Source: an uncultured Bdellovibrionales bacterium (lineage in GTDB: Bacteria; Bdellovibrionota_C; UBA2361; OMII01). Taken from it: a stretch of DNA of 64,000 nucleotides. Position 1 is the stretch's first letter, and every line of letters starts with the position of its first letter. The position numbers were made by a program, and so were the translations under genes. The notes under the pieces were generated by a model, which was not told the origin of the DNA, searched no databases, and saw only the letters and a list, made by a program, of their open reading frames with translations. This document shows, one piece after another, positions 32,245 to 47,685 of the stretch. The stretch covers positions 28,556 through 92,555 of the forward strand of contig CAYPUA010000008.1 of assembly GCA_964413875.1 (NCBI GenBank), read 5' to 3'.

Positions 32245-32277
32245 GCAGATACACGCCCTTCCGTGGAGTCACCCGTC

Positions 32278-32790
32278 CTACTGCGAAGATGACAGGTCCC
32301 TCCTGCCCAGCCCCGTTGAAATAGCCCTCTCTAGCTCATCAACATCCTGAAGATCCGTCGCCCGCGCTATCCATCTCTTGTACCGAACCAAAAGGTCTAG
32401 CCGCTGGACCTTTACTGTGAGCCCGTAGGCCTCTCGCATCTCGACGGCTTCAAAGTCTGTCGGGTCATCCCTCCACACCTCTGCATTGGTATCGTAGACT
32501 CGGATCGACTCTGCGGCAGTAATGTCGATGAGCTGCCCTTGGTAATCGAGAGTCAGCAGGAACACGTCGAAGAGCTCGTCCTTGAAGCGTCTCGGGCCGC
32601 TGACCACGTACGGCTGCACTGCCGGCAGCAGCTCCCTGAATCGCTCTTCCGGAATATCGAGGTCGATGTCGTACACGGGACGGGTCCCGCCGAAAAGCCG
32701 CACCGCGAAACCGCCACCCACGACAAACGGGATCTGTCGTTCAGCGAGCAGCTTGCCAATCCACCGAAATGCCGCTTCAGTTTTATCCAT
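32278..32790 (-). CDS. minimal nucleotidyltransferase-fold protein
   Basis: 170 aa; FVVGGGFAVRLFGG...YDIDLDI matches the GG...DxD NTase signature. Confidence 0.5.
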   Translation of the reverse strand: MDKTEAAFRWIGKLLAERQIPFVVGGGFAVRLFGGTRPVYDIDLDIPEERFRELLPAVQPYVVSGPRRFKDELFDVFLLTLDYQGQLIDITAAESIRVYDTNAEVWRDDPTDFEAVEMREAYGLTVKVQRLDLLVRYKRWIARATDLQDVDELERAISTGLGRRDLSSSQ

Positions 32791-32818
32791 GTGCAGACCT
32801 GTTTACGTCATCGTGCTT

Positions 32819-33017
32819 CTGCACGTGAACGTTCCCAAAAGTGAAGTTTAAACTAGAACAACCACTCGGGCATGCTTTTTCGGAACCGTTCCCGTTGCCG
32901 TTGCCGTTCCCGCAATCTGGCCTGAAGGCTAAACGTGCACGTTACCGAAAGTGAACCCTCAACCGGCATGGCTACTTGAGCATGCCTTTTCGGAACCGGA
33001 ACCGTTGCCGTTGCCGT
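32819..33017. repeat. two tandem ~114-bp units ending in hexamer-phased tracts
   Basis: gcacgt(g/t)aac..gaaagtgaa...gcatgc(t/c)ttttcggaacc + (gttccc/gttgcc/ggaacc)n occurs twice: 32819-32912 and 32933-33017. Confidence 0.6.
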
Positions 33018-33064
33018 CAAAGAGATTATGCGGCTCCGGCTAAACCACTGCGTTACTCAGCGCT

Positions 33065-36000
33065 CTACTCAACGGTCCAAACCTTCCCTTCGCTATTGAG
33101 GTACATCTTCCTCATCTCCTCAAGGGTGAACGGGCGTGAGCCGATGCGGCCGAGAACGCTGACCTGATGGCCTGTCTCGTCAACCGCCCGGTCTCGGTCG
33201 AGCGGCTTCGAGAGCGCGAGTGCTGGCCCCGCTGTATGCTTTCTGGCGATAACCTTCGGCTTCACTGGTGGCGAGAACCCATAGAAGCCAGGCACACGGT
33301 CTGGGTCGGTGAGCTGCACCACCACGAGTCCATTCTTGCCGTCTGCCACGTAGCCGATCAGGCTGGCATTAGTCGTGGCAACCTTTACGTCGTGTGTGTC
33401 GTTAATCTCCCCATCTGCATTGAATCTGTCGTAGATGGAGGGCTTCTCCGGACGCTCCACGTCGATGATGACTACCCCCTCTTTTCCGCCTGCTACGTAG
33501 GCGTAGGTGCGGGCAACGTAGACGTTTCGTGCGTCTGGCAGCGAGATCGTTGCTCCCGGAACCTTGCGTGGCGTCTCTGGATGCGTGATGTCGAAGACGT
33601 GGAAGCCGTCAGCATCAGTCATGAAAGCGTAGCGGAACTGGACGGCGATGCCAGTTGGGTTCCGCGCTGGCAGCATTGCCTCAACTCTCGGATCGAGCGG
33701 ATCGTCTAGGTCGAGCACGACAACTTTATCGGGTGTGCCGATGAAAGCGCGGGCGCCGGTTAGGTATATGAACTGGGCTCCCGTCAGGATCCCATCCTCG
33801 TTCCACGTCAGCTCACGGTCGAGGAAGTTGTTGCGCGGCTCGCCATCCTGCAGCGTGTCGACGTTGACTACGATCAGGCCCTCAACGCCGTCTGAGATGA
33901 AGGCGTAGTGGTAGATCGGGTGCATCGGTGTCTCTAGGTTCTCCGGAAGCTGCTCCTTAAATGGCGCCACCGGCATGTTCGTCGGAAGCGCGAGTCCTGT
34001 CGCGTTCTCGCTTGAGACGTGGGTGTCTTGCCCGAGCGGCGAGACTGGGCTCGTGACGATTCGCTCTGAGAAGCCCTTGTTGGCGATGTTTGCGATGTCG
34101 TACACACGGAAGCCGTCTGGTCCGGCAGCCGTGTAGAGGTACTCCCCGCGCATCTGTATCGCGCGCGTGTTGCCACCCACACCGTGGTGCCGGTGGCTCT
34201 CCTGAAGCTCAAGGCCGTTCTCTTGGTGCGCCCGGAAGTAATCCGGGTAGGCGTACCTGTGCAGGTAGCTTCCGATCACTGCTTGCGGTTCGTCCCACTC
34301 CGTGACCTGAACTGCCTCAAGCCCCTCTTCGCCGGCCGCAATCCAGGTGTAGTGTCCCATGAAGTTGACGAAGTTCGTTCCGAGCAGGAGGAGCTGCGCC
34401 ATAATGGCGTTGTTGTCGTTCTCCTTCGAGACATGGCAGTCCTTACAACCCTTGGTCTCCGTGGTGCGAACGGTGTGCGGGAAGTGCGGAGCAAAGGCTT
34501 GAGAGCTGTAGCCACCAGCGGAAGTGGGCGGCTGCTGGATGTAGATCTTCTGGCGGTTGACATCCGTTGAGCTGAGAACCAAGGCGCTCGACGAACGGAT
34601 CGGGACGATCTTGCCGTTCTTTGCCGGTCCGTGACGGCCGAGCTGATACATGTCATCGCGCGCTACCTGTGGGTTGTACGACGCCCAGTTGCGCGTGGTC
34701 TTGAGCTCGTAGTGGTTCGATGGGCTCTTCCAGTTCGCTTGAATCGGCAGGTGGCAGCCGCCGCACGCGGTTGTCCACGAGCTGTGGCACGCGAAACACG
34801 ACATATCGCTGTTGGGGTGCGCCAGCTTCTCTTCGAATCCCGGCTCTGCTCCCTGGCTGCTTGAAGCAACCTTGTAGGTCTCTGCCCCCTCATCGAGCTT
34901 CATCACAAGCTTCGCCTTTGCAGCGCGCTTATTGTAGTCAGGGCTCGATGGATCGACTGAGTTTTTGACCTGCTTCACACGCCACTGCAGCCCCTTGGTC
35001 ACGAGGGACCGCTGAACAAGCTGGTCTCCCTCCCAGCTAAACTGCCGCTCACCCCACGGAGTGCGCTTGAGCGAGAGGTCGTGTCCTCCCTTAGGGGCTG
35101 CAGGGCCAGAGGTCTTGAGCGAAGCACGCTTCGTCAGGTCACCGTGGCAATCCTCACATCCGATCTCAACCGCTTGGGCAACTTCGCCGTAGATGTTCCC
35201 GTCTCCGTGCGTATCCTGCGCAAAATGGCAGTCGACGCACTGCATCCCGAAGTCGACGTGGATGTCCTGCAGGTGCACAGCTTTCTTGAACTTCTCTGGG
35301 TCGCTGAACGAAACCTGCTTGCCGTTCTTGTCGAGCAGGTTCCCCTTTCTGTCACGCTTGAAGACCGCGCGGAAGTTCCAGCCGTGGCCGTGGTAGTCGG
35401 CAAACTGGGTGGTTTTGAGTTTCGGGTTCAGGTCAGCAACGCGCCTCAGGAAGTCGATGTCGGTCCACTTCCCGCGCATCGCTGCCTCCTCTGGGTTGTG
35501 GGTCAACGAAGCATGCTTCTCTTCATCAGTCGGGTAGCGCTGCTTCTCCGGCCACATGCTAGGTGCGTCAGACTCGTAGTCCCACATCGTGTACCCGATG
35601 TAGGTGTTCACGAACATGTTGGGCTGGTGCATGTGACACACCATGCACTGGCTGGTCGGGATGGCGCGGGTGAAGACGTGCTTGAGCGGGTGCCCCTCCT
35701 CGTTCTTCGGGATGGTGGGATCGACGGTCACTGACTTTCCGTCGTGGCCGAACTTGGCGTATGGGCCAGAGTGTCGTGGGTCACGATCGTTGGCGTACAC
35801 CGCGTGGCACGAAGTACAGCCGCTGCTGCGGTAGTCACCAGGGTGATCGTTGGTGCCGAGGAAGCTCAGGTGCGGGTCATTGAGCCTGGTTTTATGGATA
35901 TTGAGGATCGGCACCGCGATGCGCGCTCCGGTGCCCGGCCCTCGATTGGACGCTTTGACGTCAGGCTTCCCTGGCTCCTCGAGCGTATTCGGCACGCCAA

Positions 36001-36781
36001 CCTCGGCGAACTGGGAGCGGTTAAAGATGCCGCCGCGCTCAAAGACGCGGAAGATATCTGCTGGCGCGAGCACCTCCCAGGCCGGGAGCGGCAGAAGCTT
36101 CTCCAGCGCACCGCGCGCCTTCATCTCATCCGTCAGAGGACGCGATTCGTCGTGCAGCACCGATGCTGGCTCACCCTGCTGGGTGTACGCCTCCCCGAGC
36201 ATGTAGCGCTTGAACGGCAAGATGCCGTTGTTGTAGGCCGCACCGCCCCACAGCATAGCCGAGGTCGTCATGAGGCTCTTCTTTACGGCGCTCGTTATCT
36301 CAGAGTGGCAGCCGCCGCACGCCTGGGGCGCGGCGCGCAGGTCGCCTGGATTGATGAAGCGCGCAAACTCCAGGGACTCCTCTGTGAGCTGGTTGTAGGT
36401 GTGCTTAGGGTTCGCTGATGTTGGCCACCACTCGGGGTGCAGCGGCTGAACGTGCGCCAGCTTCTTGGCTGCTTCGTACGCCGCATCACTTTCACGGAGC
36501 CCCTTGGCACGCACCGTGGCGTTGCCGCCGTGGCACTCCGCACAACCGATGTGAATAGCCGGATTCTCGTGCATCGTGGGTGCGTCTGTCTTAGTGTGGC
36601 AGTCGAGGCACCCGACGCTCGTCTCTGCCATCCGTACCGGACTGCCGTAGGGCTCGATAACATCCGTGTAGCGATCCTCTGCGAACAGCCCGGTGGAGAG
36701 GGCAACAGCGATCGCTCCGGCGGCCGCCATCTTCCACAAACTCCCCGCTGCTGCTGCCCTGGCTGTCATTGCCCTACTCAT
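33065..36781 (-). CDS. decahaem c-type cytochrome fused to C-terminal LVIVD-repeat beta-propeller
   Basis: 1238 aa; signal/anchor AAAGAIAVALSTGLFA; 10 CxxCH (CLDCH, CAECH, CGGCH, CTSCH, CMVCH, CVDCH, CEDCH, CFACH, CGGCH, CKDCH); LVIVD-like GLIVVNVD, VVVLDLDDP, GVVIIDVERP, GLVVVQLTDP. Confidence 0.85.
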   Translation of the reverse strand: MSRAMTARAAAAGSLWKMAAAGAIAVALSTGLFAEDRYTDVIEPYGSPVRMAETSVGCLDCHTKTDAPTMHENPAIHIGCAECHGGNATVRAKGLRESDAAYEAAKKLAHVQPLHPEWWPTSANPKHTYNQLTEESLEFARFINPGDLRAAPQACGGCHSEITSAVKKSLMTTSAMLWGGAAYNNGILPFKRYMLGEAYTQQGEPASVLHDESRPLTDEMKARGALEKLLPLPAWEVLAPADIFRVFERGGIFNRSQFAEVGVPNTLEEPGKPDVKASNRGPGTGARIAVPILNIHKTRLNDPHLSFLGTNDHPGDYRSSGCTSCHAVYANDRDPRHSGPYAKFGHDGKSVTVDPTIPKNEEGHPLKHVFTRAIPTSQCMVCHMHQPNMFVNTYIGYTMWDYESDAPSMWPEKQRYPTDEEKHASLTHNPEEAAMRGKWTDIDFLRRVADLNPKLKTTQFADYHGHGWNFRAVFKRDRKGNLLDKNGKQVSFSDPEKFKKAVHLQDIHVDFGMQCVDCHFAQDTHGDGNIYGEVAQAVEIGCEDCHGDLTKRASLKTSGPAAPKGGHDLSLKRTPWGERQFSWEGDQLVQRSLVTKGLQWRVKQVKNSVDPSSPDYNKRAAKAKLVMKLDEGAETYKVASSSQGAEPGFEEKLAHPNSDMSCFACHSSWTTACGGCHLPIQANWKSPSNHYELKTTRNWASYNPQVARDDMYQLGRHGPAKNGKIVPIRSSSALVLSSTDVNRQKIYIQQPPTSAGGYSSQAFAPHFPHTVRTTETKGCKDCHVSKENDNNAIMAQLLLLGTNFVNFMGHYTWIAAGEEGLEAVQVTEWDEPQAVIGSYLHRYAYPDYFRAHQENGLELQESHRHHGVGGNTRAIQMRGEYLYTAAGPDGFRVYDIANIANKGFSERIVTSPVSPLGQDTHVSSENATGLALPTNMPVAPFKEQLPENLETPMHPIYHYAFISDGVEGLIVVNVDTLQDGEPRNNFLDRELTWNEDGILTGAQFIYLTGARAFIGTPDKVVVLDLDDPLDPRVEAMLPARNPTGIAVQFRYAFMTDADGFHVFDITHPETPRKVPGATISLPDARNVYVARTYAYVAGGKEGVVIIDVERPEKPSIYDRFNADGEINDTHDVKVATTNASLIGYVADGKNGLVVVQLTDPDRVPGFYGFSPPVKPKVIARKHTAGPALALSKPLDRDRAVDETGHQVSVLGRIGSRPFTLEEMRKMYLNSEGKVWTVE

Positions 36782-38595
36782 TAGTACTGGAAGATTACGT
36801 TTGTAAATGCGTCGTAGAGCACCTGGCTGCCGAAGAGGTTCTTCTGGCCGCTGCCCGGAAAGAGCACTCCTGAGCCCACTCGGATCACGACGTTGTTGTT
36901 AAGGAATGGCCGGTAGAAAAACCCTGCCGAGAGGTCTACACCGATATCGCGCGTAATGGAGCCGTCCTGCCGAAGGTCCTGGAGCACCGCCACCTCGTCG
37001 AACTGCAGGAAGCTCGTGTTCGTTACGAGCTTCAGCTCTGGCAGGAGCTCGAAGTCAACTCCGACGTTGTAGACGCGAATACCTGGGTTTACGAAGTTCG
37101 CTTGCCCGAGCTCTTTGCCGGCCTTGAGGTCCGGCAGCAAGCTGTTGCGGTTCGTGAGGTTGACGCCACCGCCGCCAACGAAGGGGATCGCCTCACGCTG
37201 GAAGAAGGAGAGATCGCCGCCGGCGAAGTTTGGGTTGTCGAAGATAGAGTCAAAGCCCTCTGCCTGCCCGTCGTACGGGTCATCGTCTCCCGATGCCCAG
37301 AAGAAGGAGGCCCGGATTCGCACGAAGTCGATATCGTACGAAAATTCCTGGGCAAACATTGCGGCGTTGATGTCAACTTGTCGGTTGGCAATCTGGTTGT
37401 GACTCTCAGATCCCATGACGTAGTAGAACTGCGTGGTGGTGTTGACGCGCCCGACGTGGCCGTCGCCGCCGATACCGAAGTACGTTGAGTTTAGGTTCTT
37501 GAAGCGCTCATCCCCTATCGGGGCCGGACGCACGAGAAAGTTGTTGCGGTCGTACTTGTAGCCGGCGTCGCCGGCGTTGTCCTGTCGGTTCACGACGCTA
37601 AAGAGCATCGTGTGGCCCATGAACAACATGTCCTGCCGGTACATGTTCGCTGCAAACACGTTCTGGTGGCGGTAGTCGAAGGTAGTGTTGATGCCGGTGT
37701 TTGTGTCCTTGTCGAGGAGAAAGAACGCCGCCGCGTTAAACTGGGTCTTGTTGTTGTCGTAGTTGCCGAAGAAGCGCACGCCCGGCTCGTTGTCGTTGAA
37801 GAGAAATCCACGGAAGTCGGCGTTGAACTGCTGGATACCGATGCGTGTCGAGAGGAAGTCGTAGCGATCAGAGAGATTTGCTAAATGAATGTCCGCGAAG
37901 AGTTCCTGGAAGCCGGTTGCGTTGGCTGTGCGCGTGTCGCCAAAAGCTGGGTCAGCCTTGAGCAGGCCATTCTCGTTGGCGTAGAGGCGGTTGACCTGAA
38001 ATATCGGCGTGATGCGCAGCTCGAAGTCTGGCGGCTTGAAGGCTGTGTCTCCGCGAATGAGGCTGAACGAGGCGATTACGTTCTCTACCCAAAAATTCTG
38101 GTCGCCATCGCCGAAGACGTTGTTGCTGCTGGGGCGGCGCGTCGTGGCGTTTCCAACCGGAACTGGTATGCGCCTGGTCTCAAACATTGAGTCTGAGATG
38201 AGAGACGTTTCAACAAACCACTCCTCGCCGGGCTTGCCGAACGCGGGGATATCCGCCTTGATGATGTTCTGGTTGTACGGGTCGTAGTATTTCCCAGCGT
38301 AAAACATCCTCCAGCGGTCTGGGACTGCGATGAACTCGGAGGCTGAGTCCTGTATCGGGGGCATGGACTCGTAGATGTAATCCGGGAATGGCGGCGTCTG
38401 CTTGTCGGGGAACTGCCGCTCAAGGGCTTCACGGGGAACGTGCTCCTCAGTTTGCGGCTGCGACTGGGCTGAGGCGGGATGAGCAGTAAAACAGAGAACC
38501 AGCAGGAGAAGCGCGCCGAGGCAGCATCTCCCCGGGCAACGCCCGGCCTCCACAGCGCCCCACGTCCGGGGATGTGAAGCACATGGCTCTCTCAT
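36781..38595 (-). CDS. outer-membrane beta-barrel protein (porin-like)
   Basis: 604 aa; signal peptide ending HPASAQS; long alternating-strand region; C-terminal ..NVIFQY aromatic terminus; stop overlaps the downstream start (TAATG). Confidence 0.6.
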   Translation of the reverse strand: MREPCASHPRTWGAVEAGRCPGRCCLGALLLLVLCFTAHPASAQSQPQTEEHVPREALERQFPDKQTPPFPDYIYESMPPIQDSASEFIAVPDRWRMFYAGKYYDPYNQNIIKADIPAFGKPGEEWFVETSLISDSMFETRRIPVPVGNATTRRPSSNNVFGDGDQNFWVENVIASFSLIRGDTAFKPPDFELRITPIFQVNRLYANENGLLKADPAFGDTRTANATGFQELFADIHLANLSDRYDFLSTRIGIQQFNADFRGFLFNDNEPGVRFFGNYDNNKTQFNAAAFFLLDKDTNTGINTTFDYRHQNVFAANMYRQDMLFMGHTMLFSVVNRQDNAGDAGYKYDRNNFLVRPAPIGDERFKNLNSTYFGIGGDGHVGRVNTTTQFYYVMGSESHNQIANRQVDINAAMFAQEFSYDIDFVRIRASFFWASGDDDPYDGQAEGFDSIFDNPNFAGGDLSFFQREAIPFVGGGGVNLTNRNSLLPDLKAGKELGQANFVNPGIRVYNVGVDFELLPELKLVTNTSFLQFDEVAVLQDLRQDGSITRDIGVDLSAGFFYRPFLNNNVVIRVGSGVLFPGSGQKNLFGSQVLYDAFTNVIFQY

Positions 38596-38599
38596 CAGC

Positions 38600-40486
38600 C
38601 TATCCTTCTCCTTCGGTGCACACGCCCTGCTCGTTGCTGCCGTTGAACGGCGCTTCCGGGCAGTTTACGTAGCGCAGCCGCGTGTTGGGCTGCGGCACGA
38701 TCTGGTCGGAGCGAATCGCGTTCGGTGCATTGAAGCCAAGCAGAGCGTCTCCAACTGTTGTGTAGCCAGCGTAGTCGAGCCCGCGGCGGCTTGCGCCGTA
38801 GTACCCAACCATGTCGTCCTGGTCGACGCCGTCGCCACTCACGCCGATAGCTCCGATCAGGACGCCGTTGCGGTACAGCGGCGTGCCTCCCGGAAAGATC
38901 TGCAGGCCGTTCTTGAGGCGACTGCCGAAGGCGCCGCTCGTGCAGCCGTTCGGCACCGAGCCTGGACTCACGATCGGCCCTGCGAACCCGCCGAGCACCA
39001 GATCAAGCTGCAGGCCAGTGTTAAACACTGACCAGCTCTGCCCGGGCGCTGTTCCTGGGAACGGGAGCGAAAACGGCCCGTTGGCGGTGCCTTCGATTCC
39101 GTCCGGGAAGTACGGCCGCGACAGGTTCCCGATCGCACGCGAGGTAATCGCGTGGCTGCCGTCGAGCGAAGCTCCAGTGAAGGCGGCAAACGCTGACGAG
39201 AAACCTCCCAGGCCCCCCGCCGACAGCGTTGAGCCTGCATCCGCTGAACTCATGAAGGCTGCTCCTCGGGCTTTCTGCAGGGCAACGTCCACGCCAAACA
39301 CCGGCGCATCCTGCGAACGGATGAAGCCCAGCGGGCTTCCTAGATTGTCGACCACGAAGATCGAAACACGCGCGGCTGTGTCACGCGGGGTGCGAATCGC
39401 TGCCCGCGCGCGGCTGGCAGTAATGAGCGCTGAATCGAGAAGCGCATTCACCTCGCTCGCCGAGAGCTGCTCGCCGCCAGCCAGTGGCCGGCCGCCGATC
39501 GTTGGAAAACGCCCGACGACAATCGCTGCCGGAAGCCCCGCCTTGACCGTATCGGCGATTCCCGACGGGAAGGTTCCAAAGGTCGTTCCGGCCTTGATGG
39601 AACCGTTGGTGTACGAGGGCTGAGACTTGAGGCACGAGGGGTCGAGATCAGCCAGATCAGTTGGGATAACGATCTCCGAGTAGCTCGTGTCTGAGTAACG
39701 GACCGAGCGCCCAGCCAGCGAGATGTTGTCGCCCACGCGCTGCGCTGGAGCCTCGAACCCAACGCTTGCCGAGAGCGCAACGGACTCCTCTGGGTCGCTG
39801 TCGTAGTCCTGAAGGTCGGGGTCAATAGTGTAGAGACCATCGAACTCGACTCCAACACCGCCGACCAGGTCTCCCTGCTTGTAGAGCGGGAAGCCGCCTG
39901 GATCCGCAGAGAGGCCGAGCGGAAGCGGCCGCGGTCCGGTAGCGGCGTTCGCCCGAGTGACGTCACTGCAGATCAGCTGAGAAAACTGCACGCCGAAGAG
40001 CGGCCCGCCTGGCTGCTGCCGCTGTCCGGGCAGGTAGTTCTGCTGAATAATCTGCCCCGCCGTGCGGGTCGAGAACGCATTCCCTTGAGAGCTAAGGTAG
40101 GCGCCAGTGCCAGCCTTCGATATGGCGGCTAGCGTCGAAGGCACCGCAAGCCCCTCAAGCGGGCCCGATGCGCCGGTCTGCCCGTTGATGGTAGTTGTGA
40201 GCGGCGCGCCATTCATCTGGTACAGCGCAAGAACGTTGCCGGTGCGGTCAACAACCGAGAATGTGCCGGCTGTCCCCATCGCATTCGCCGCCGTCACAGC
40301 CTGGCGCAGGATGGTCGTGACGTCATCAACCGAGAGCGACTGGTTCGGGCAGCTTCCGTCACAGTTAAAGTTTGCGTTTGGATCTCCGCCGCTGCTCGCA
40401 CCGCCGGAACCACCCCCGCCCCCACAACCCGGCAAGGCCGAGAAGATGATTGCTGCAGAGAGAAGCAGGCAGATGTGCTTTTTCAT
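38600..40486 (-). CDS. lipoprotein with two GlcG/HbpS-like (DUF336) putative haem-binding domains
   Basis: 628 aa; MKKHICLLLSAAIIFSALPGC lipobox + Gly/Ser linker; LSVDDVTTILRQAV..FSVVDRTGNVLAL and LSASEVNALL..IFVVDNLGSPLGF; C-terminal GGTPLYRNGVLIGAIGVSGDGVDQDD matches the GlcG signature. Confidence 0.6.
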   Translation of the reverse strand: MKKHICLLLSAAIIFSALPGCGGGGGSGGASSGGDPNANFNCDGSCPNQSLSVDDVTTILRQAVTAANAMGTAGTFSVVDRTGNVLALYQMNGAPLTTTINGQTGASGPLEGLAVPSTLAAISKAGTGAYLSSQGNAFSTRTAGQIIQQNYLPGQRQQPGGPLFGVQFSQLICSDVTRANAATGPRPLPLGLSADPGGFPLYKQGDLVGGVGVEFDGLYTIDPDLQDYDSDPEESVALSASVGFEAPAQRVGDNISLAGRSVRYSDTSYSEIVIPTDLADLDPSCLKSQPSYTNGSIKAGTTFGTFPSGIADTVKAGLPAAIVVGRFPTIGGRPLAGGEQLSASEVNALLDSALITASRARAAIRTPRDTAARVSIFVVDNLGSPLGFIRSQDAPVFGVDVALQKARGAAFMSSADAGSTLSAGGLGGFSSAFAAFTGASLDGSHAITSRAIGNLSRPYFPDGIEGTANGPFSLPFPGTAPGQSWSVFNTGLQLDLVLGGFAGPIVSPGSVPNGCTSGAFGSRLKNGLQIFPGGTPLYRNGVLIGAIGVSGDGVDQDDMVGYYGASRRGLDYAGYTTVGDALLGFNAPNAIRSDQIVPQPNTRLRYVNCPEAPFNGSNEQGVCTEGEG

Positions 40487-40498
40487 AGTCGACAGATC

Positions 40499-42178
40499 CT
40501 ACCGAGTTAGGCCTTTAAGGTAATTCGCGATATCTTGCTTCTTTTCAGCCGGGAAACCAAGCGCGTCGTGGTAGGAGTGGCACTCAACGCAGTCGGAACG
40601 CACGTAGCCCCCTTTGCCTGAAGATGCGTGGCACTCCTGGCAGAGCTGCTTGCGGGGCAGGAGCAGATCCGCGGTGTCTTTTGAATTTCGAGCCTGCTCG
40701 TGACACGACTCGCAGCTAAACTCTTCGTGCGCGCCGTGGCTGAATCGTGCCGCCGGGAACCAGACGTTGGGTATTTTCGGCGAGACGATCTCGTAGTGAG
40801 AATTAACTGACGTCTGAAACTCCTCTGGCTTCTCCCGATACGAGTGACAGAGGAAGCATCCTGTCTTCGTGAAGAGCTGCCGCTCCGCAGCACGGGCGCT
40901 CTCAACCACTCCTGGAATGCCTGTCGCTTCGATCATCGGAGTCGTCCGCGGCTCGTCTGCCCCTGGCATCTCTCGCTGCATATCCTTGGCTGGATTCGGA
41001 AGCTCGTGATCCTCTCCTAACAGGACAACCCTGGAGTAAGCCGCGAAGAGCGCAGGGAAGACAGCGTCTGCGTCTCCGTGCGGAACCTGCGAGTTCGGCA
41101 GCCGCTCGTCGAAGCCAAGCGAGTGGCAGTCCTGGCAGTGTTGCTCGAAGTCAATCGGCTTGAGCGTCTTGAAATCCTTGTCGAGCGCATGGCAGTCAGC
41201 GCACTGCAATGTGACAGGCCCGTCCTTCCCCTCCAGCCCTTCCTTGAGGTGCACCTTGTGGCCAAACTTAATCGGCGTCGGATCCTTCGCCTTGGGATCG
41301 TCCAGGCTTGCTCGCGTCACCACGTCATTGGCGTCAAGCAGCGAGACCCTAAACTGTGGGTGAGTGTCGAACGATGCGACGTTCTCGACCGTCGCCCCGC
41401 TCTTGAGCGCCGTCAGGTTGCCGTGGCATGAAACACAGAATCGCGAGTCTTCTGATATGATGCCGTGATCTCCGTTGTGCTCCATGTGGCACTCAGCGCA
41501 GCGCAGCCCCAGCTCTTTGTGCTGCTGCAAGAAGTCGCCCATGCCGTGAGCGTGCTCGGTCATGGAGTGACACGCGAGACACTCCTGGTCGCGCACCGGC
41601 TTGAAGGGCTCTGCGTGGCACTTGACGCAGTCATGCTCGATGAGCTTGTGGGAGTTCGAGATCGGGCCCGAGCTCCACTGCTTCTTGCTGCTCGTGGAGA
41701 GCGGGTAGGCGAGCCACGCAACCACCCCGATCGCGGCCAAGACAACGGAGATGGCCTTGATAGAGGGCAGGTACGACTCAAGCCGAAGCTGCCGCATCCG
41801 GCGCGCCACGCGCTCGCCATCCGGCAGCGCGAGCGGCATCAGCTCAAGCCATGTCACCTCCGCTGTGTCTCCCTCGAACGATACGCGAAGGTCGATATCG
41901 CCTAACGACACAACATCGCCGCTGTGAAGCTCAGCGCGGCTTACGGTACGGCCGTTAACCCGGATGCCAGTCGGGGATTCAAGGTCGGTCACGACCAGCG
42001 CCCCGCCCTCACGCGTGAGCTTTGCGTGCTGGGTCCCTACTTTGTAGCTCGGCAGGATGACATGAGAGCTTCCGCCTCGGCCGAAGATAATCGCTGGATC
42101 AGAAAACTCAACGACGCGCCGCTCAGCGCCCCCCGCGTCAGCTTTCTTCTCATGAATGAAGCGAAATACCGAAGCCAT
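40499..42178 (-). CDS. FHA-domain / single TM / decahaem c-type cytochrome fusion
   Basis: 559 aa; FHA FGRGGSSHVILP..VGTQHAKL..VTDLESPTGIRVNGRTV; TM ISVVLAAIGVVAWLAYPL; 10 CxxCH (CVKCH, CLACH, CAECH, CVSCH, CADCH, CQDCH, CFLCH, CESCH, CQECH, CVECH). Confidence 0.85.
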   Translation of the reverse strand: MASVFRFIHEKKADAGGAERRVVEFSDPAIIFGRGGSSHVILPSYKVGTQHAKLTREGGALVVTDLESPTGIRVNGRTVSRAELHSGDVVSLGDIDLRVSFEGDTAEVTWLELMPLALPDGERVARRMRQLRLESYLPSIKAISVVLAAIGVVAWLAYPLSTSSKKQWSSGPISNSHKLIEHDCVKCHAEPFKPVRDQECLACHSMTEHAHGMGDFLQQHKELGLRCAECHMEHNGDHGIISEDSRFCVSCHGNLTALKSGATVENVASFDTHPQFRVSLLDANDVVTRASLDDPKAKDPTPIKFGHKVHLKEGLEGKDGPVTLQCADCHALDKDFKTLKPIDFEQHCQDCHSLGFDERLPNSQVPHGDADAVFPALFAAYSRVVLLGEDHELPNPAKDMQREMPGADEPRTTPMIEATGIPGVVESARAAERQLFTKTGCFLCHSYREKPEEFQTSVNSHYEIVSPKIPNVWFPAARFSHGAHEEFSCESCHEQARNSKDTADLLLPRKQLCQECHASSGKGGYVRSDCVECHSYHDALGFPAEKKQDIANYLKGLTR

Positions 42179-42181
42179 GCC

Positions 42182-43000
42182 CTACCGGAGATACAAGACA
42201 GACACTATGTGTGCGACGAGCGCCGCGCACAGCGCGCACGAGACCGGCACGTGCACGTAGAGCCACAACTTGAGCAGCGCCTTGATGCGCGCCTGCTCCG
42301 CCAGCTCGCGCAATATGTCGAGGCGCTGGTCGAGGAGGCCGATCATCGCCACAGCCTCGGTGTGCTCGGCTCCCTCAAGGCGCGAGAGCATCTCACGCGC
42401 CGCGTTCTTGTCTACCGCAGGCTGACGGCTCCTGAGGAGCATCCAAGCGAGAGAGGGCTTGAACGGCGCGCAGAAATCATTGTAAAGGCGAACAAAAGCG
42501 TCGCTCTTTCCGGCACAGAGCTGGCCAGCCTGCTGCTCAAGCTCGTCCACGCGCTCAACGAGCAGCTCATCCTTTGCTCCTCCGCGGTGTGAGGTGATGC
42601 GCCCTGACAACGTCGAGTAGTTAACGGCCCCCCAGATGCCGGTCAGAATCGTGAGCACCATGAGAACGTACGCCAGCGTGTGCACGTTGCAGCCGAAGCT
42701 GAAAGCAGCGTGCAGCGGAACCACAAGCAGCAGCCCGATACCAATCCAGACGTGCGCAGCGAGCCAACCCTCAAGCGTGCCAAGAGACGAATGGTACGCG
42801 CGCTTGCGGAGCCCAAAAGCCATCAGCCATGCGATTCCCACCGCAGCGAGGATCCCGTACGTGTAGCCGAGCAGTGAGCCGCCGCTCCTGCCGCCGATCG
42901 GCCTGTCGATCAGGTACAGCGCAAAGAGGGCCACGAGAGCGGCTATCGTGATCCAGAGCCACTTGAAGCGCCGGTAGTTGAGGAAGGTCTGTTGGTACAT
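42182..43000 (-). CDS. polytopic inner-membrane protein with His-bearing helices (possible b-haem or quinone-linked subunit)
   Basis: 272 aa; 4 N-terminal TM + ~120-aa helical soluble segment + C-terminal TM; His in helices (AAHVWIG, VPLHAAF, NVHTLAY, YVHVPVS, VAHIVSV); no family recognised. Confidence 0.45.
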   Translation of the reverse strand: MYQQTFLNYRRFKWLWITIAALVALFALYLIDRPIGGRSGGSLLGYTYGILAAVGIAWLMAFGLRKRAYHSSLGTLEGWLAAHVWIGIGLLLVVPLHAAFSFGCNVHTLAYVLMVLTILTGIWGAVNYSTLSGRITSHRGGAKDELLVERVDELEQQAGQLCAGKSDAFVRLYNDFCAPFKPSLAWMLLRSRQPAVDKNAAREMLSRLEGAEHTEAVAMIGLLDQRLDILRELAEQARIKALLKLWLYVHVPVSCALCAALVAHIVSVLYLR

Positions 43001-43003
43001 TCC

Positions 43004-45349
43004 CTACTCCCTCCTCGCCGACGCAATCTGGACAAGCCGAGCTGAATTCACGCGCATCGCAGCCCCGGTCGGGCAAGAGCGCACGCAGGCCGGTCCGCCC
43101 GCGAGATCGTGGCACATGTCGCATTTCGCAGCCTTGGCGGGCCCCTTCTCCTTCTTCTTGGCAAGACCGAGCATCGAGAGCAGGAAGCCGCCCGACGACG
43201 GACGATCGTAGACGAGCTTGATGACTCCGTAGGGGCAGTTGCTGACGCAGTTTCCGCAGCCGATGCACGACTCCTTGATAATCACTTCGCCGTCGACTTG
43301 CCGAACGAGCGCGTCTGGCGGGCAGTCGAGCATGCACAGCGGGTTCTCACAGTGCCGGCACGAGATCGGAAGCTGGATAGACGCGAAGCTCTTCCCGCCC
43401 TTTCGGTCGAGGCGCGAATACCCACCATGCGTCGCGGCGCAAGCGGCTTCACAGTTGTCACACGCGACGCAAAGGTCAGAGTCGATGAGCAGCACGTTCT
43501 CGGCATCCGTGAGCCCTTCTCGCATCATGAAGTCGAGCAGCTTGCCGGAGTCCTCTGTCCAGTCTGACATGGCGTTGTCGACACGGCGCTCGTCGGCGAC
43601 TTGCAGCAATCGCCTGCGAACGTCCGGATCCTGGGAGATCAGCGCAAGGGTATCCTCTTTCTTAATCACGATGGTGTCGCACGCTACCGCCGCCGAGCAC
43701 GTTGCGGAGCGCAGCACCGGCTCCTCTTTTAGGATCGCCATCTCTCCGACGTAGTTGCCTGCCGGGACGTAGGTCTGAGCCACATCGACGCCAGCACGGT
43801 TGAGGCGCGACACCTTCACTGAGCCTTTGCGAATCACGTACAACGCATCCCCGGGCTCGCCCTCGCGAAAGATCACATCCCCCTTCTTGAAGCTCTTCAT
43901 CTGCGCTTTCTGAACGAGCGCCCGGAGCAGCGCCTCGGGCGCATCAGGGAAGATCGATGTCTGCATGGCTCGCAGCATGAAGAGCTCGTCGAGGGCGCGC
44001 TTCACCGACGGCACCGATGCGATCAGCTTCAGCACCTGCTTGCGCGGAGTCTCAAGCAGGATTGTGCCGTCTTCCGCCGTCACCACCGTTGCCACGCGCC
44101 GCCGTCCGGACAGCAGCCCCATCTCGCCGAAGAACTGCCCCTGAGAGAGCAATACGCGGCGATGGCTGTCGATGACGATCTCTACCGAGCCTGACACAAT
44201 GCTGAAGAAGGTGTCGGTGTAGTCGTCTTTTTCGAAAACCGTGTCGCCCGCGCTTTTGAGGTGCAGCGTGGAGTCGATCAGCATCTCGCGCAGCTGCGGC
44301 GCGCTCAGGTCCCTGAAGAGAGGTATGCTCTGCGCGACTTTTTCGAAGTTAGCCTCGAAGCCGCCGGGCAGCTGTTCGAACCGCTCCTCAAGCAGCGGCT
44401 GGTCGGCTGGCTCCACTGCCTCGCCGCGGATGTGCGCTATCACCTCGTAGCCCTGGTTCATCGCCTGCTTAATCAGCGGGTAGCCGATCAGCGCACCGAG
44501 GATGAAGAGCCCTGGGACGTTTGACTCGTAGCGGTGCGAAACTGATGGAACCGCATTCGCGTCGGCGTTCGGGAAAGCGATTCCGATCCCTTCGAGAAAC
44601 TTCCTCGGCAGGATGCAGCCCAGCCGGGCGATCGCGTGGTCGCAGGGCACGACAACCTCGCCCTCTGGCGTATTGATAGCTGCCTTGCTGCCTTCGATGC
44701 GGGCGACCGTTGCGTTGTAGAAGCAGCGGATCTTGCCGCTGCCTATCGCGGCCAGGATAAGCTTGCTATTAGCGTCTTTTGCGCGCGCAAACTCCGAGCC
44801 GCGATTGATGAGCGTCACTGTATTGTGCGCAGAAAGCGCCAGCGCGTTCTCGATCGCCGCATCGCCGGCACCGACTACGAGGATCTGCTTTCCGTTGAAC
44901 GCATCTGGATCTGCCAGCGTGTACGCAACGCTGCCTGCGTCCTCGCCTGGAACGCCAAGCTTGCGCGGAGAGCCCTGCACGCCTATCGCCAAGATCACAT
45001 GCTTCGCGGTGCAGACGGAGCCGCCGTGCGTGATCTCAAAGAGGCCGTCACGCTTGGCGATCGCCGTCACCTCGGCCTTGACCATGTTCACTGCATGCTT
45101 AGCGAGATCCTCGCTGTACTCCTGAAGGATCTTCTCGCGGCTTCCAGCTTCAAAGCGACAGTGGGCGCGCAACGGCAGCCGGCTCGGCTCTGCCATGACG
45201 TGCTTGCGCAGTTGGTAGTCGTAGATGGTGTTGGCGACCTGCCCCTTCTCGAAAAGGATGTGGGTGATCTTATGGTGCGCGGCGCTGGTGGCTGCCGCGA
45301 TTCCTGCTGGTCCAGCACCAATAATTGCGATTTCAAAGTGCTGCGACAT
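43004..45349 (-). CDS. FAD/NAD(P)-dependent oxidoreductase fused to two cyclic-nucleotide-binding domains and a multi-[4Fe-4S] ferredoxin domain
   Basis: 781 aa; IIGAGPAGIAAA and VVGAGDAAIENA Rossmann motifs; cNMP motifs FFGEMGLLSGRRRVATV and YVGEMAILKEEPVLRSATC; CVACDNCEAAC, CRHCENPLCMLDCP, CIGCGNCVSNCP, CDMC..ACVRSCP. Confidence 0.85.
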   Translation of the reverse strand: MSQHFEIAIIGAGPAGIAAATSAAHHKITHILFEKGQVANTIYDYQLRKHVMAEPSRLPLRAHCRFEAGSREKILQEYSEDLAKHAVNMVKAEVTAIAKRDGLFEITHGGSVCTAKHVILAIGVQGSPRKLGVPGEDAGSVAYTLADPDAFNGKQILVVGAGDAAIENALALSAHNTVTLINRGSEFARAKDANSKLILAAIGSGKIRCFYNATVARIEGSKAAINTPEGEVVVPCDHAIARLGCILPRKFLEGIGIAFPNADANAVPSVSHRYESNVPGLFILGALIGYPLIKQAMNQGYEVIAHIRGEAVEPADQPLLEERFEQLPGGFEANFEKVAQSIPLFRDLSAPQLREMLIDSTLHLKSAGDTVFEKDDYTDTFFSIVSGSVEIVIDSHRRVLLSQGQFFGEMGLLSGRRRVATVVTAEDGTILLETPRKQVLKLIASVPSVKRALDELFMLRAMQTSIFPDAPEALLRALVQKAQMKSFKKGDVIFREGEPGDALYVIRKGSVKVSRLNRAGVDVAQTYVPAGNYVGEMAILKEEPVLRSATCSAAVACDTIVIKKEDTLALISQDPDVRRRLLQVADERRVDNAMSDWTEDSGKLLDFMMREGLTDAENVLLIDSDLCVACDNCEAACAATHGGYSRLDRKGGKSFASIQLPISCRHCENPLCMLDCPPDALVRQVDGEVIIKESCIGCGNCVSNCPYGVIKLVYDRPSSGGFLLSMLGLAKKKEKGPAKAAKCDMCHDLAGGPACVRSCPTGAAMRVNSARLVQIASARRE

Positions 45350-45371
45350 CTGGGGCGCTTAACCACGAAGA

Positions 45372-45387
45372 AGAGCTGATCAGCTCT
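45372..45387. promoter_or_regulatory. perfect 16-bp palindrome in the divergent control region
   Basis: agagctgatcagctct, 22 nt upstream of the oxidoreductase start codon (minus strand); operator or 5'-UTR hairpin. Confidence 0.3.
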
Positions 45388-45576
45388 GCATGAGACTATG
45401 CGACAGAGCGCTTCGAATATAGGTTTCTGAGGCTGTCGAGGCAAATCAAAAGACGGTGTACTGAGGCAAACTTGAACAGCCGATTCAACTTCACGCGCTT
45501 TCGATGGCGCGCCTCTCTTTGCTCCTTGAAAACCGCCCCCATTTCAGGGATACAGCTCTTGGCGATTGGGGGGGCG

Positions 45577-46854
45577 ATGTTTCCAAGGCAAATAAAACGG
45601 CTTTTTATAGCGGCGCTCCTGTTGCCCGCCCTCGCATCAGCCACCCCCGATACATACGTCGGCACCGGCTCGTGCTCCTCCTCGAACTGCCACGGAAGCG
45701 TCAGCCCCCGCAAGGCTTCCAACGTCCTGCAGAACGAGTACTACACCTGGCTCAAGCACGATAAACATTCGCAAGCGTACTCGGTGCTGCTCAAGGCAGA
45801 CGCCAGGCGTATGGCTTCCCTGATGGGGCTCGGCGAGCCCTCAAAGGAGCCGCTGTGCCTCAAGTGCCACGCCACGTACGCCTCAAGCGCCGAGCAGCGC
45901 GGCGAAAAATACTCGGTTGAGGATGGCGTGTCGTGCGAGTCGTGCCACGGCGCGGCGGAGCGCTGGCTTGAGACACACGCAGTTGCCGGCGCCACTCACC
46001 AGCAGAACCTGGCAAATGGGCTCGCTGACACCGCCCCGCTCGACAAGCGCGCAAAGCTCTGTGTGTCGTGCCACTACGGCGACAGCGACAAGCGCGTCAT
46101 GCACAACCTCTACGGAGCTGGGCACCCACGGCTCAGCTTCGAGCTCGACACGTACGGCGTGCTGGAGCCCAAGCACTGGGTTGTCGACGAGGACTACATA
46201 AAGCGCAAAGGCCCCTACGTGCCGCTCTCCGCCTGGTTTATCGGGCAGGAAACGCTCGCTGAGAGCACCGTCACGACACTTCTCTCGCCGGAGCTCTCGA
46301 GGAATGGCACGTTCCCAGAGCTAAGCATTTTTGACTGCTACTCGTGCCACCACAGCCTCGCCGACGCGCAGTGGAAGCACCGTGACTACGGCGGAAAAAC
46401 GGGCCGGCTGAGCGTAAACATCGCGTCACTCGTGATGCTGCAGCACGCGCTAGCTGCGCTCGATCGCCCGCTTGCGGAAGAGCTCGCGAGCCTGACCCTA
46501 ACCATTCAAGACCAGTTCCAAGCAAACGGCTCGACTGAAGCGCTGCAGAAAACCCAAGAGCTGCTCCAAGGCACCATTCGCCCGATGCTGATGAAGATGG
46601 CTGCCGACGAGAAGAGCACCCGTGCTGTCATGAAGGAGCTGTGCCTCTTCGGGACAGCAGCAGTATCACCGAAGTATGAGGTCGCCGAGCAGATCGGGAT
46701 GGGGATACAGGCTGCGATGGCGACCTCGCCCGTTCTAGCGAAGCGCCACAAAGCCTCGCTCGACAAGCTCTTTGCAACGCTCGCAAAGCCTGATGCTTTC
46801 AATCCGGATGCTTTCGCAAGAGCGGCGAAGAGGCTCGCTGGCGAGCTCCCGTAA
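45577..46854 (+). CDS. secreted multihaem c-type cytochrome (c554-like family)
   Basis: Start moved to MFPRQIKRLFIAALLLPALASA (signal peptide); 4 CxxCH (CLKCH, CESCH, CVSCH, CYSCH) plus CSSSNCH (CX4CH). Confidence 0.8.
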   Translation: MFPRQIKRLFIAALLLPALASATPDTYVGTGSCSSSNCHGSVSPRKASNVLQNEYYTWLKHDKHSQAYSVLLKADARRMASLMGLGEPSKEPLCLKCHATYASSAEQRGEKYSVEDGVSCESCHGAAERWLETHAVAGATHQQNLANGLADTAPLDKRAKLCVSCHYGDSDKRVMHNLYGAGHPRLSFELDTYGVLEPKHWVVDEDYIKRKGPYVPLSAWFIGQETLAESTVTTLLSPELSRNGTFPELSIFDCYSCHHSLADAQWKHRDYGGKTGRLSVNIASLVMLQHALAALDRPLAEELASLTLTIQDQFQANGSTEALQKTQELLQGTIRPMLMKMAADEKSTRAVMKELCLFGTAAVSPKYEVAEQIGMGIQAAMATSPVLAKRHKASLDKLFATLAKPDAFNPDAFARAAKRLAGELP

Positions 46855-47056
46855 GCCTAGCAGCGCACTCTAAGAATTTCTCTGAATCCCCTGTATCGTG
46901 TTCTCTTCGAGATACTTTTACCTGGAAATTCGCTCGTTTCGGTACGAGCGGCACCACCCCTAAGCCAGAGACGAAGAAACAGCTACCCCGATAAGACACA
47001 CATACCACGCCTCCTCTCATATCACATAGAAGCGCCACTTTTGGTGAGGTTACGTC

Positions 47057-47515
47057 ATGAACAATTTTTCCGGGCTCAGCGCTGACACGATCGTTCAGCA
47101 CATGGAAGCTCTCAAGCAGCGCAAAGCTATCAAGCAGAATAAAGCTGAACTGTCGCTCGCGACGGCGATCGTTCTGATGGAGATTGCTTCGTCGGACCAG
47201 CAGGTCGACAAGTTCGAACGCTCAGTCATTCAGCATGGCCTAAAAGCGCTCTTTGATATTTCAGACGAGACGGCAGTCGGTGTAATCACACGCGCAAAAG
47301 CGCACCTCGGGAACATGGGGAGCAGCTCGTCTTATGCATCCTTGCTCAAAGACATCCTAGACCCCGGAACCAAGCGCCAAATGGCAAGTATCATGGATAA
47401 CCTGATCCGGTGTAACGGAGTAGTTGACGGCATGGAGATCTACCTGCGACGCCGTTTTCGCGACTTGCTCGGATTGCCAGATGAAGCGCTCTCTCCGCTC
47501 TCGTCCGAGGAGTAA
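47057..47515 (+). CDS. TerB-like (tellurite-resistance/DjlA N-domain fold) protein
   Basis: 152 aa; LATAIVLMEIASSDQQVDKFERSVIQ and MASIMDNLIRCNGVVDGMEIYLRRRF resemble the paired-helix TerB repeat. Confidence 0.55.
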   Translation: MNNFSGLSADTIVQHMEALKQRKAIKQNKAELSLATAIVLMEIASSDQQVDKFERSVIQHGLKALFDISDETAVGVITRAKAHLGNMGSSSSYASLLKDILDPGTKRQMASIMDNLIRCNGVVDGMEIYLRRRFRDLLGLPDEALSPLSSEE

Positions 47516-47658
47516 AGCGCCCCTAACAAAGTAAACCAACACGGATACCGAAGCGGTCCAGATGCAATCTGGCACAGCCAAATACCGAACGAATCCGGGA
47601 GGATCTCCGGTCTCTTAGCACTACCAAGTAGGCCCGAGAGAAAATCAGCGCCAGAAGC

Positions 47659-47685
47659 TAACAATATCCCCTGGCCTGCCGAACT
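47659..47685 (+). promoter_or_regulatory. sigma-28 (FliA)-like promoter
   Basis: TAAC-N15-GCCGAACT versus consensus TAAA-N15-GCCGATAA, ~215 nt upstream of the flagellin ATG. Confidence 0.3.

Follow-up and report, generated by a model that had tools for sequence, protein, structure and literature searches.

A widely conserved seven-gene cluster of an uncultured Bdellovibrionales bacterium encodes a candidate NAD(P)H-fed trans-envelope electron-transfer chain

The stretch of DNA analysed here (the window) comprises 64,000 nucleotides from an uncultured Bdellovibrionales bacterium (contig CAYPUA010000008.1 of assembly GCA_964413875.1, positions 28,556 to 92,555). Between its positions 33,065 and 46,854 lies a cluster of seven genes, here called A to G, which encode a cytoplasmic flavo-iron-sulfur protein (A), an inner-membrane protein (B), the multihaem c-type cytochromes C, F and G, a lipoprotein (D) and an outer-membrane beta-barrel (E). 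The cluster is real, strongly conserved and widespread, and the nearest published descriptions are those of the ptd genes, which are bioinformatic, and of a gene trio in Ferrigenium. The reading that we favour, to which we give about an even chance, is that the seven proteins form a two-module chain that would export electrons from cytoplasmic NAD(P)H, without use of the quinone pool, to an acceptor located at the outer membrane or outside it. A preliminary description made from the sequence of the window had already proposed a regulated electron conduit across the envelope; its anatomy was right, and its functional reading is a reasonable proposal.

Six of the genes run head-to-tail on the minus strand in the order A (43004-45349), B (42182-43000), C (40499-42178), D (38600-40486), E (36781-38595) and F (33065-36781), and encode proteins of 781, 272, 559, 628, 604 and 1238 aa, respectively. 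The gaps between them measure 3, 3, 12 and 4 nt, followed by a 1-nt overlap of E and F, and the junctions read TAGGGAATG (TAG-GGA-ATG) for A/B, TAGGGCATG (TAG-GGC-ATG) for B/C, TAG-12 nt-ATG for C/D, TAGGCTGATG (TAG-GCTG-ATG) for D/E and TAATG for E/F. The cytochrome gene G (45577-46854, plus strand) diverges from the others at a distance of 227 nt from A. All of these positions, including the TAATG overlap and the divergent cytochrome gene, had been given correctly to the base in the preliminary description, which had treated the minus-strand genes as a unit of six. The unit is one of seven genes, since G was found together with A-F in all 35 complete loci.

The loci analysed numbered 82, of which 80 came from a scan of species-representative genomes and two were taken directly from encoding contigs. 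All seven genes were present in 35 of the 35 related loci long enough to hold them, and the order D-E-F was kept in 74 of 75; such recurrence shows that the gene set is not a matter of chance, and the gene order proved to be conserved in relatives. The four arrangements observed (G<>ABCDEF, BCDEFGA, and ABCDEFG with G on either strand) are all cyclic permutations of G-A-B-C-D-E-F, the first being typical of Bdellovibrionota, including the window, and a few other lineages, and the second of Beta- and Gammaproteobacteria. Lineages carrying the complete set include Bdellovibrionota, Alpha-, Beta- and Gammaproteobacteria, Myxococcota, Acidobacteriota and Verrucomicrobiota, and the cluster is present in at least six phyla. 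At least 4800 homologous clusters exist for E and at least 7900 for F, all of them annotated as 'hypothetical', and relatives of the cluster were confirmed in at least 599 genomes representing species. Across the loci, median identity to the window ranges from 59% for F, the slowest-evolving and most conserved member, through 47% (A), 45% (D), 44% (E), 38% (G) and 34% (B) to 30% for C; among the matches listed, the closest are metagenome-assembled genomes (MAGs) of Bdellovibrionota with approximately 80% identity. The most divergent subfamily of B, that of Thermoanaerobaculia, was pursued deliberately, and a different genomic context for it was rejected, as it lies in the same seven-gene cluster.

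The cluster is both ancient and mobile. In Sphingobium herbicidovorans MH it is located on the conjugative 959-kb megaplasmid pMSHV (801035-817324; genes B6S01_RS18410-18455) in two convergent units, G-D-E-F on the one hand and A-B-C followed by a gene for a SpdA/CpdA-like cyclic-nucleotide phosphodiesterase (PDE) on the other, and in an Oligoflexia MAG A-B-C stand apart from D-E-F. It is from this separation of A-B-C from the outer genes that two modules are read. In Burkholderiales and Thermoanaerobaculia a complete ccm operon for System I maturation of cytochrome c (ccmA/B, C, E, F, H) lies beside the cluster (at 1-4994 of locus L014, 1-4837 of L022 and 1-5841 of L083), as if the two had been transferred together, and dedicated ccm genes travelling with the cluster imply that its cytochromes matter to the host. 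Across the cluster in the window no GC anomaly was seen in base composition, and there is thus no sign of recent acquisition in this genome. The hosts are mostly heterotrophic aerobes, e.g. Sphingobium, Duganella, Undibacterium and Lysobacterales, and include the cultured aerobes S. herbicidovorans MH and Duganella rivi FT55W as well as a genome of Undibacterium sp. SXout7W that is not labelled as a MAG. The RefSeq names on the megaplasmid are generic ('heme-binding protein', 'multiheme c-type cytochrome'), and F was also found on twelve further Sphingobium and Sphingopyxis plasmids. The streamlined methylotroph Methylophilaceae MMSCM63, with a chromosome of 1.64 Mb, has kept B-C-D-E-F-G; no A gene was present within the 21.7 kb analysed, and A may lie elsewhere or have been replaced.

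The proteins were characterized by Pfam and NCBIfam searches for domains, by sequence searches of the PDB for structural relatives and by homologue alignments for invariant residues. Protein A, for which neither a transmembrane (TM) helix nor a signal peptide was predicted, matched Pyr_redox_3/2 (E = 1e-35), two cNMP_binding domains (E = 5e-37) and Fer4 dicluster domains. These are laid out as a thioredoxin reductase (TrxR)/YpdA-type domain for flavin adenine dinucleotide (FAD) and NAD(P)H, two tandem domains binding cyclic nucleoside monophosphates (cNMP; cyclic-nucleotide-binding or CNB domains) and a HycB/HydN-type ferredoxin domain, and the PDB matches were to Bdr/YpdA, TrxR-type ferredoxin-NADP reductase (FNR), the CNB domains of PKA-R/PKG and HycB. 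Among 39 homologues the FAD motif GxGxxG and the NAD(P) motifs GxGxxA and N-R are invariant, as are the GE…R[ST]AT cassette in both CNB domains and 16 cysteines in four groups of CxxCxxCxxxC type, enough for four [4Fe-4S] clusters, while no cysteine outside the iron-sulfur domain and no redox-active CxxC disulfide is conserved. All of the domains first attributed to A were recovered, the iron-sulfur part now sharpened to its invariant cysteines. The flavin domain, with two Rossmann motifs and without a redox-active CxxC, is of the TrxR-type FNR/YpdA kind, but A scores far below the NCBIfam equivalog cut-offs and is therefore a relative rather than an orthologue of these enzymes. By its domains, A resembles a dehydrogenase of NAD(P)H:ferredoxin type that has its own wire of four clusters and, set between the flavin and iron-sulfur parts, a switch responding to cNMP.

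B, which had been described as polytopic with His-bearing helices, is predicted from hydropathy and positive-inside topology to have five TM helices and a 124-aa cytoplasmic loop. Five histidines are invariant among 54 homologues, namely H83 and H97 on TM3, H250 and H264 on TM5, and H107, and both pairs follow the pattern Hx13H on helices that are predicted to run in parallel from inside to outside. Two histidine pairs 13 residues apart on two TM helices constitute the bis-His haem-b pattern of the ferric reductase domain superfamily, and we infer B to be a di-haem b transmembrane electron carrier. The family signal obtained for B was weak (Ni_hydr_CYTB, cytochrome b561, E = 0.08), no match to PF01794 (Ferric_reduct) was obtained at E ≤ 10, and its five predicted helices compare with a six-helix core in that family. 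Acidobacterial homologues of B carry faint precomputed matches to PF01794 or PF01292 (cytochrome b561), and one of them has been named 'predicted ferric reductase' by the Joint Genome Institute. A search for fusions of B to partner domains (Rosetta-stone proteins) was unproductive, the best 150 of 1492 HMMER representatives being essentially all stand-alone proteins of 260-310 aa.

In agreement with the preliminary description, C was found to consist of a forkhead-associated (FHA)-like domain (Pfam FHA, E = 6e-12) at a cytoplasmic N-terminus, a single TM helix at approximately residues 142-160 and a periplasmic decahaem domain (cytochrome c3/c7) with ten CxxCH motifs. In 56 of 56 homologues these motifs are accompanied by ten further invariant histidines, candidate distal ligands for each haem, on which account C is predicted to be a bis-His haem wire and not a catalytic haem protein. 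The FHA-like N-terminus is present in approximately 44 of the 56, with a conserved G-R (R in 44 of 45) and commonly His-Ala. G is a Sec-exported cytochrome of 425 aa with a C-terminal helical domain, matching Cytochrome_C554 (E = 1e-12) and MtrC/MtrF domain II/IV (E = 4e-7) in Pfam; its four CxxCH motifs and one CxxxxCH motif, invariant among 38 homologues, identify it as pentahaem, and no sequence relative was found in the PDB. A common origin of C, F and G was considered and rejected, pairwise BLAST giving haem-motif matches only.

The remaining proteins belong to the outer part of the envelope. D carries an LPGC lipobox, a Gly/Ser-rich linker and two GlcG/HbpS-like (DUF336) domains (Pfam HbpS-like, E = 6e-20), which are also visible as an internal repeat with two copies of the motif GGxPL…GxxGAxGVSG, so that the lipoprotein of two such domains first proposed is confirmed; its PDB sequence matches were EfgA/GlcG-type proteins. 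The lipobox occurs in 53 of 67 homologues, some Rhodospirillaceae having an ordinary signal peptide instead, and four cysteines are conserved among the homologues. E has no match in Pfam or NCBIfam, even at E ≤ 10, and belongs to no described family. The AlphaFold2 (AF2) model (pLDDT 64) is a barrel of approximately 20 strands (19 detected), and the sequence contains a conserved 70-residue insertion (residues 435-505) with a GGGG motif and ends in an aromatic beta-signal (terminal ...IFQY), all of which bears out its original assignment as a barrel. The best Foldseek match was AlgE (E = 2e-11, TM-scores 0.36/0.48), followed by OccD/OmpF-type porins, and MtrB was not among the top 50. F, correctly recognised from the outset as a decahaem cytochrome with an LVIVD propeller, is Sec-exported and has ten CxxCH motifs spread over approximately 780 aa (about 78 residues per haem; ten motifs in 57 of 58 homologues), followed by a C-terminal beta-propeller of 7-8 blades (LVIVD, E = 1e-12). 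It has no lipobox and no sequence relative in the PDB. The propeller was modelled by AF2 with a pLDDT of 85-92, and only this part of the model was used, as the haem half was unreliable (pLDDT below 50); Foldseek matched the propeller to generic propeller folds only, that of cd1 nitrite reductase among them.

The predicted locations of the seven proteins align over the envelope, with A in the cytoplasm, B crossing the inner membrane five times, C with its FHA domain inside and its haems outside, D bearing a lipobox, E forming a barrel and F and G exported by Sec, and none of them matched a quinol-oxidising subunit of NapC/NirT, NrfD or cytochrome bc type in Pfam or NCBIfam. In the scheme that we favour, in which we infer the cofactor occupancy of B, the direction of flow, the physical contacts, the gating, the location of F and the acceptor, A would oxidise NAD(P)H at its TrxR/FNR-like flavin domain and pass the electrons to its four [4Fe-4S] clusters. 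B would carry them over the inner membrane by way of two b-haems stacked one above the other, the cytoplasmic one held by H83/H250 and the periplasmic one by H97/H264, and C, with its single-helix anchor, would accept them on its ten-haem bis-His wire. Pentahaem G and decahaem F would prolong the chain to the outer membrane, where F, together with the barrel E and the GlcG-type lipoprotein D, would deliver the electrons to an acceptor at or beyond this membrane; a complex there is the reading favoured by the tight E-F coupling and by the invariant order of D-E-F. The chain would hold approximately 27 haems in total (two haem b in B and ten, five and ten haem c in C, G and F, respectively). Electron flow would be gated by the binding of cyclic AMP or cyclic GMP to the two CNB domains of A, set between the flavin and iron-sulfur parts, and the FHA-like domain of C, with additional FHA proteins in some lineages, may serve as a second input. 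The direction is taken to be outward because inward flow would oppose the membrane potential and end on a couple at -320 mV without a coupling device. Outward export from NAD(P)H would be downhill but wasteful, as it would conserve no energy and dissipate the membrane potential; the chain would therefore be kept shut unless signalled, which would explain the invariant cNMP switch.

Control by cyclic nucleotides is plausible, given that both phosphate-binding cassettes of A are invariant and that genes of cNMP turnover adjoin the cluster in several lineages (an FHA-cyclase, a class-II-PDE-like gene and the SpdA/CpdA-like phosphodiesterase). Several signalling genes near the cluster are recorded here in their own right. 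On a related 253-kb contig, a gene encoding FHA fused to adenylate/guanylate cyclase lies directly beside G (L002, 1-1012, minus strand), and by its domains it links the two signalling themes of the cluster, FHA and cNMP. Thermoanaerobaculia have a PatA_N+FHA gene upstream of A, and in them C either carries two FHA domains or is joined by a small, separately encoded FHA protein (features at 5954-7321 of L083, 6485-7390 of L084, and 5247-6347 and 11560-12087 of L085); in L085 a gene for glucose-6-phosphate dehydrogenase, a source of NADPH, is next door. In the window itself, 20 kb from the cluster, a CHASE2 sensor is fused to an adenylate/guanylate cyclase (11379-13475, minus strand). The organism thus encodes predicted cyclic-nucleotide synthesis, and this protein could supply the signal that A reads.

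No characterised system was found to match the cluster. It shares with Mtr/Pio/Mto, Geobacter Pcc and ExtABCD/EFG/HIJKL the adjacency of a barrel gene to multihaem cytochrome genes, E and F here overlapping by 1 nt. In ExtHIJKL, moreover, the porin is accompanied by a lipoprotein without haem, ExtH, which recalls the pairing of D and E. However, MtrB has 26 strands, whereas E has about 20 and is AlgE-like, and it is quinol that supplies the known conduits, through CymA, ImcH or CbcL, whereas a dedicated NAD(P)H dehydrogenase is present here. None of the seven proteins reached the NCBIfam threshold of an Mtr, Dms, OmcA or Ext family: G scored 21.9 bits against TIGR03508 (cut-off 192) and 19.9 against TIGR03507 (cut-off 209), C and F had no MtrA/DmsE or OmcA/MtrC family match, and F scored 66.7 bits against ExtM (cut-off 800) in a local match at residues 504-554 and 30 bits against ExtN (cut-off 200). 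With thresholds missed this widely and a barrel of another type, membership in the Mtr/Pio/Mto, Pcc and Ext families was rejected.

The inner module finds its parallels elsewhere. A and B together follow the logic of NOX/FRE enzymes (bacterial NOX, MsrQ-type), in which electrons pass from cytoplasmic NAD(P)H over flavin and two bis-His b-haems, stacked across the membrane, to an outside acceptor. Unlike its counterpart in these enzymes, B has five TM helices instead of six and did not match Ferric_reduct significantly. The cluster also interposes two CNB domains and a ferredoxin with four clusters, and its acceptor would be a cytochrome c wire and not O2 or Fe(III) directly. In the Tmc and Hmc complexes of sulfate reducers, a periplasmic multihaem cytochrome c, a membrane cytochrome b and a cytoplasmic iron-sulfur protein span the inner membrane, and weak NCBIfam matches to HmcA, HmcB and DsrO were seen here; these complexes, however, are built from other protein families, lack a flavin/NAD(P)H domain and an outer-membrane module, and usually direct electrons inward. 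In Listeria, Ndh2-EetAB-PplA forms a route in which a dedicated NADH dehydrogenase feeds extracellular acceptors separately from aerobic respiration, but this system is Gram-positive, depends on a quinone (demethylmenaquinone), uses flavinylated lipoproteins instead of haems and has no homology to the cluster. By analogy, the cluster resembles a porin-cytochrome system whose inner module is built in the manner of NOX/FRE or Tmc.

Closer likenesses are found among published gene clusters, compared here by description only. The ptdABCDEFG genes, reported as new for marine Alphaproteobacteria (UBA11136) and others on the basis of bioinformatics and metatranscriptomics, include those for a porin, a FAD/NAD(P) oxidoreductase, a protein with cNMP-binding and 4Fe-4S parts, a TM protein termed 'ferric reductase-like' and cytochromes with four, five and ten haems (bioRxiv 10.1101/2023.11.21.568154; e.g. 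accessions MBT5131319-25 and SMF72578-608). E, A (as a fusion of flavin and cNMP/iron-sulfur parts), B, C and G match this gene content, the series PtdD-E-F-G (tetrahaem, cNMP/iron-sulfur, TM, decahaem) mirrors G-A-B-C, and in one ptd genome the FAD gene stands beside the cNMP/iron-sulfur gene, resembling a split A. In contrast, the ptd porin is adjoined by a pentahaem protein with a beta-sandwich (NrfA COG) and not by a 1238-aa decahaem-LVIVD-propeller protein, the GlcG-type lipoprotein that precedes the barrel here is absent, the flavin and iron-sulfur parts are encoded separately, an FHA domain is not among the features reported, and the organisms come from saline habitats. The 'NHC' trio of Ferrigenium straubiae, for which its authors propose inward flow to quinone (bioRxiv 10.64898/2026.01.22.701106), comprises a membrane-anchored FHA-multihaem cytochrome beside a [4Fe-4S] protein and a protein with five TM helices in which no known domain is recognised, i.e. 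the pattern of A-B-C; it differs in having nine haems and in adjoining nirK, and D-E-F-G are not reported nearby. It looks like the A-B-C module on its own. The initial impression that nothing similar was known holds for characterised systems but has to be qualified for published gene clusters, as both ptd (2023-24, bioinformatic) and the Ferrigenium trio had already been described. Other candidates were rejected: the Tenderiales uet cluster, a different system whose LVIVD protein is not a cytochrome, and the porin-multihaem cytochrome clusters of freshwater Verrucomicrobia and the EET1-4 clusters of peat, which differ in gene content (8-13-haem proteins and no flavin, cNMP or FHA domains) and to which no link could be established. 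The cluster is not described in the MHCscan survey.

Several observations weigh against a chain that exports electrons to the outer membrane. B falls short of significance for every haem-b family in Pfam and NCBIfam, and has no relative in the PDB, profile search included. D shows no invariant histidine in the homologue alignment, which leaves a haem role for it unsupported and the label 'haem-binding-like' in the preliminary description weak. The model of E, of only moderate confidence, is closer to AlgE and substrate porins than to MtrB. F, at about 78 residues per haem, is too bulky to thread a 20-strand barrel whole, and its conservation, unlike that of surface-exposed MtrC/OmcA, fits a periplasmic enzyme or a barrel-embedded core. 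As for regulation, the early proposal gains support from the invariant cNMP cassettes and the neighbouring cyclase and PDE genes. The FHA domain may bind phosphothreonine, but it is missing in approximately 11 of the 56 C homologues (a subgroup of Undibacterium, Duganella, Limnobacter and Methylophilaceae), and where it is present the position of the canonical phosphate-binding Ser is mostly Ala, Gly or Ser, and so is often replaced. Finally, most hosts are aerobes without a known need for extracellular respiration, and the literature searched held no experimental work on any homologue.

The extreme conservation and bulk of F, the porin-like fold of E and the periplasmic form of D in some lineages together speak for an enzyme in the periplasm that is served by a specific channel, and this is the most serious alternative, although we consider it rather unlikely. 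NAD(P)H would feed A, B and C, and possibly G, and F would be a terminal reductase of a soluble substrate (an oxyanion, N-oxide, peroxide or chelated metal), with E as the specific channel for substrate or product and D as an accessory or sensor. The haem density of F is enzyme-like, and the cd1 nitrite reductase fold is found among its many generic propeller matches. The folds nearest to E include, besides AlgE, the substrate-specific OccD/OprD porins, and its internal insertion is highly conserved; D is unlipidated in some Alphaproteobacteria, implying a periplasmic location, and GlcG/EfgA-type domains bind small ligands. Moreover, the weak and local similarity of F to ExtM/ExtN leads to the Geobacter selenite/tellurite cluster, whose porin ExtI is no Fe(III) conduit. 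On the other hand, no catalytic-haem signature (CxxCK or a missing distal ligand) was identified in F, in which the invariant histidines suffice for ten bis-His haems; the coupling of E to F through a 1-nt overlap, like the invariant order of D-E-F, is more suggestive of a complex with fixed stoichiometry than of a free porin; and a 25-haem chain is long for the supply of a periplasmic enzyme.

Operation in the opposite direction, in which a donor outside the cell or in the periplasm (Fe(II), reduced humics or a cathode) would supply the electrons to reduce NAD(P)+ or another cytoplasmic substrate at A, appears improbable. Haem wires are reversible, an inward role has been proposed for the homologous-looking FHA-nonahaem/TM/iron-sulfur trio by those who described it in the Fe(II) oxidiser Ferrigenium, and the ptd relatives occur in chemolithotroph-rich, oxygen-deficient waters. 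Bioenergetically, however, such flow would be uphill twice, against the negative-inside potential and onto NAD(P)+ (about -320 mV), no energy-coupling subunit is found among the seven proteins, and the hosts are mostly heterotrophic aerobes. Still less credible is a redox sensor in which the haem chain would report the periplasmic or extracellular redox state and the FHA and CNB domains would couple it to signalling, for in spite of the dense signalling domains (two CNB, one or two FHA, extra PatA_N-FHA genes and the neighbouring cyclase and PDE genes) and the role of HbpS-type proteins in redox sensing in Streptomyces, both CNB and FHA domains bind ligands and receive input, no output domain (kinase, cyclase or DNA-binding) occurs among the seven proteins, and a full NAD(P)H-FAD-4xFeS dehydrogenase with 27 haems would be excessive.

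If electrons are indeed exported as proposed, the cluster would represent a third way of feeding a porin-cytochrome conduit, directly from pyridine nucleotides via a flavin/iron-sulfur/haem-b exporter and switched by a second messenger, and it may be an unrecognised route by which many ordinary aerobes reduce something at or beyond their surface. A bolder proposal, which we put forward tentatively and regard as doubtful, is that the cluster is a multi-subunit bacterial counterpart of the eukaryotic NOX/FRE enzymes, i.e. a cNMP-gated, quinone-independent NAD(P)H:extracellular-acceptor oxidoreductase across the Gram-negative envelope, spread horizontally in thousands of aerobic freshwater, soil and marine bacteria. 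It would then serve regulated surface chemistry, such as the use of reduction to mobilise Fe(III)/Mn oxides as nutrients or the deliberate production of extracellular superoxide, rather than respiration. To our knowledge, the enzymatic source of bacterial extracellular superoxide is still largely unidentified. Its production is reported to be widespread and tightly regulated in bacteria (PMC6414704). Surveys of extracellular electron transfer that are built on known markers would miss the cluster, and three protein families without annotation (B, E and the architecture of F) could gain a function. The cultured hosts make the question accessible to genetics, and the presence of the cluster on a conjugative megaplasmid and in a streamlined 1.6-Mb methylotroph genome indicates that it is not a curiosity of one MAG.

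The intergenic region between G and A contains candidate regulatory sites. A consensus scan returned a promoter candidate on the minus strand at 45416-45444 (-35 TTGCCT, 17 nt spacer, -10 TATATT), approximately 67 nt upstream of the start codon of A. The match is not significant on its own, but both hexamers and their spacing are kept in the G-A intergenic regions of L003, L004, L006 and L007, and the pair is probably the promoter of A-F. On the plus strand, an element common to L003 and L004, CCTTGAAAA-N9-TTTCAGGGATAC (45524-45553), lies 24 nt upstream of the start codon of G and by its position could be either the promoter of G or a regulator site (operator). No Fur-box-like or CRP/FNR-like sites were seen by eye in the G-A intergenic region, a terminator scan gave nothing above chance inside the operon, and no RNA family was detected in an Rfam scan of 32000-48000. 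The leader between the conserved -10 box and the start codon of A holds a perfect 16-bp palindrome, AGAGCTGATCAGCTCT (45372-45387), which is missing from the related loci L003, L004, L006 and L007.

Elsewhere in the window, two long open reading frames with overlapping ends (20941-23232 and 23214-24983, plus strand; 763 and 589 aa) matched nothing in Pfam at E ≤ 1e-5. Directly downstream of G lies a gene encoding a TerB (tellurite-resistance) domain (47057-47515, plus strand), which is not a conserved neighbour at the other loci and is curious beside the weak similarity of F to ExtM/ExtN of the Geobacter selenite/tellurite cluster.

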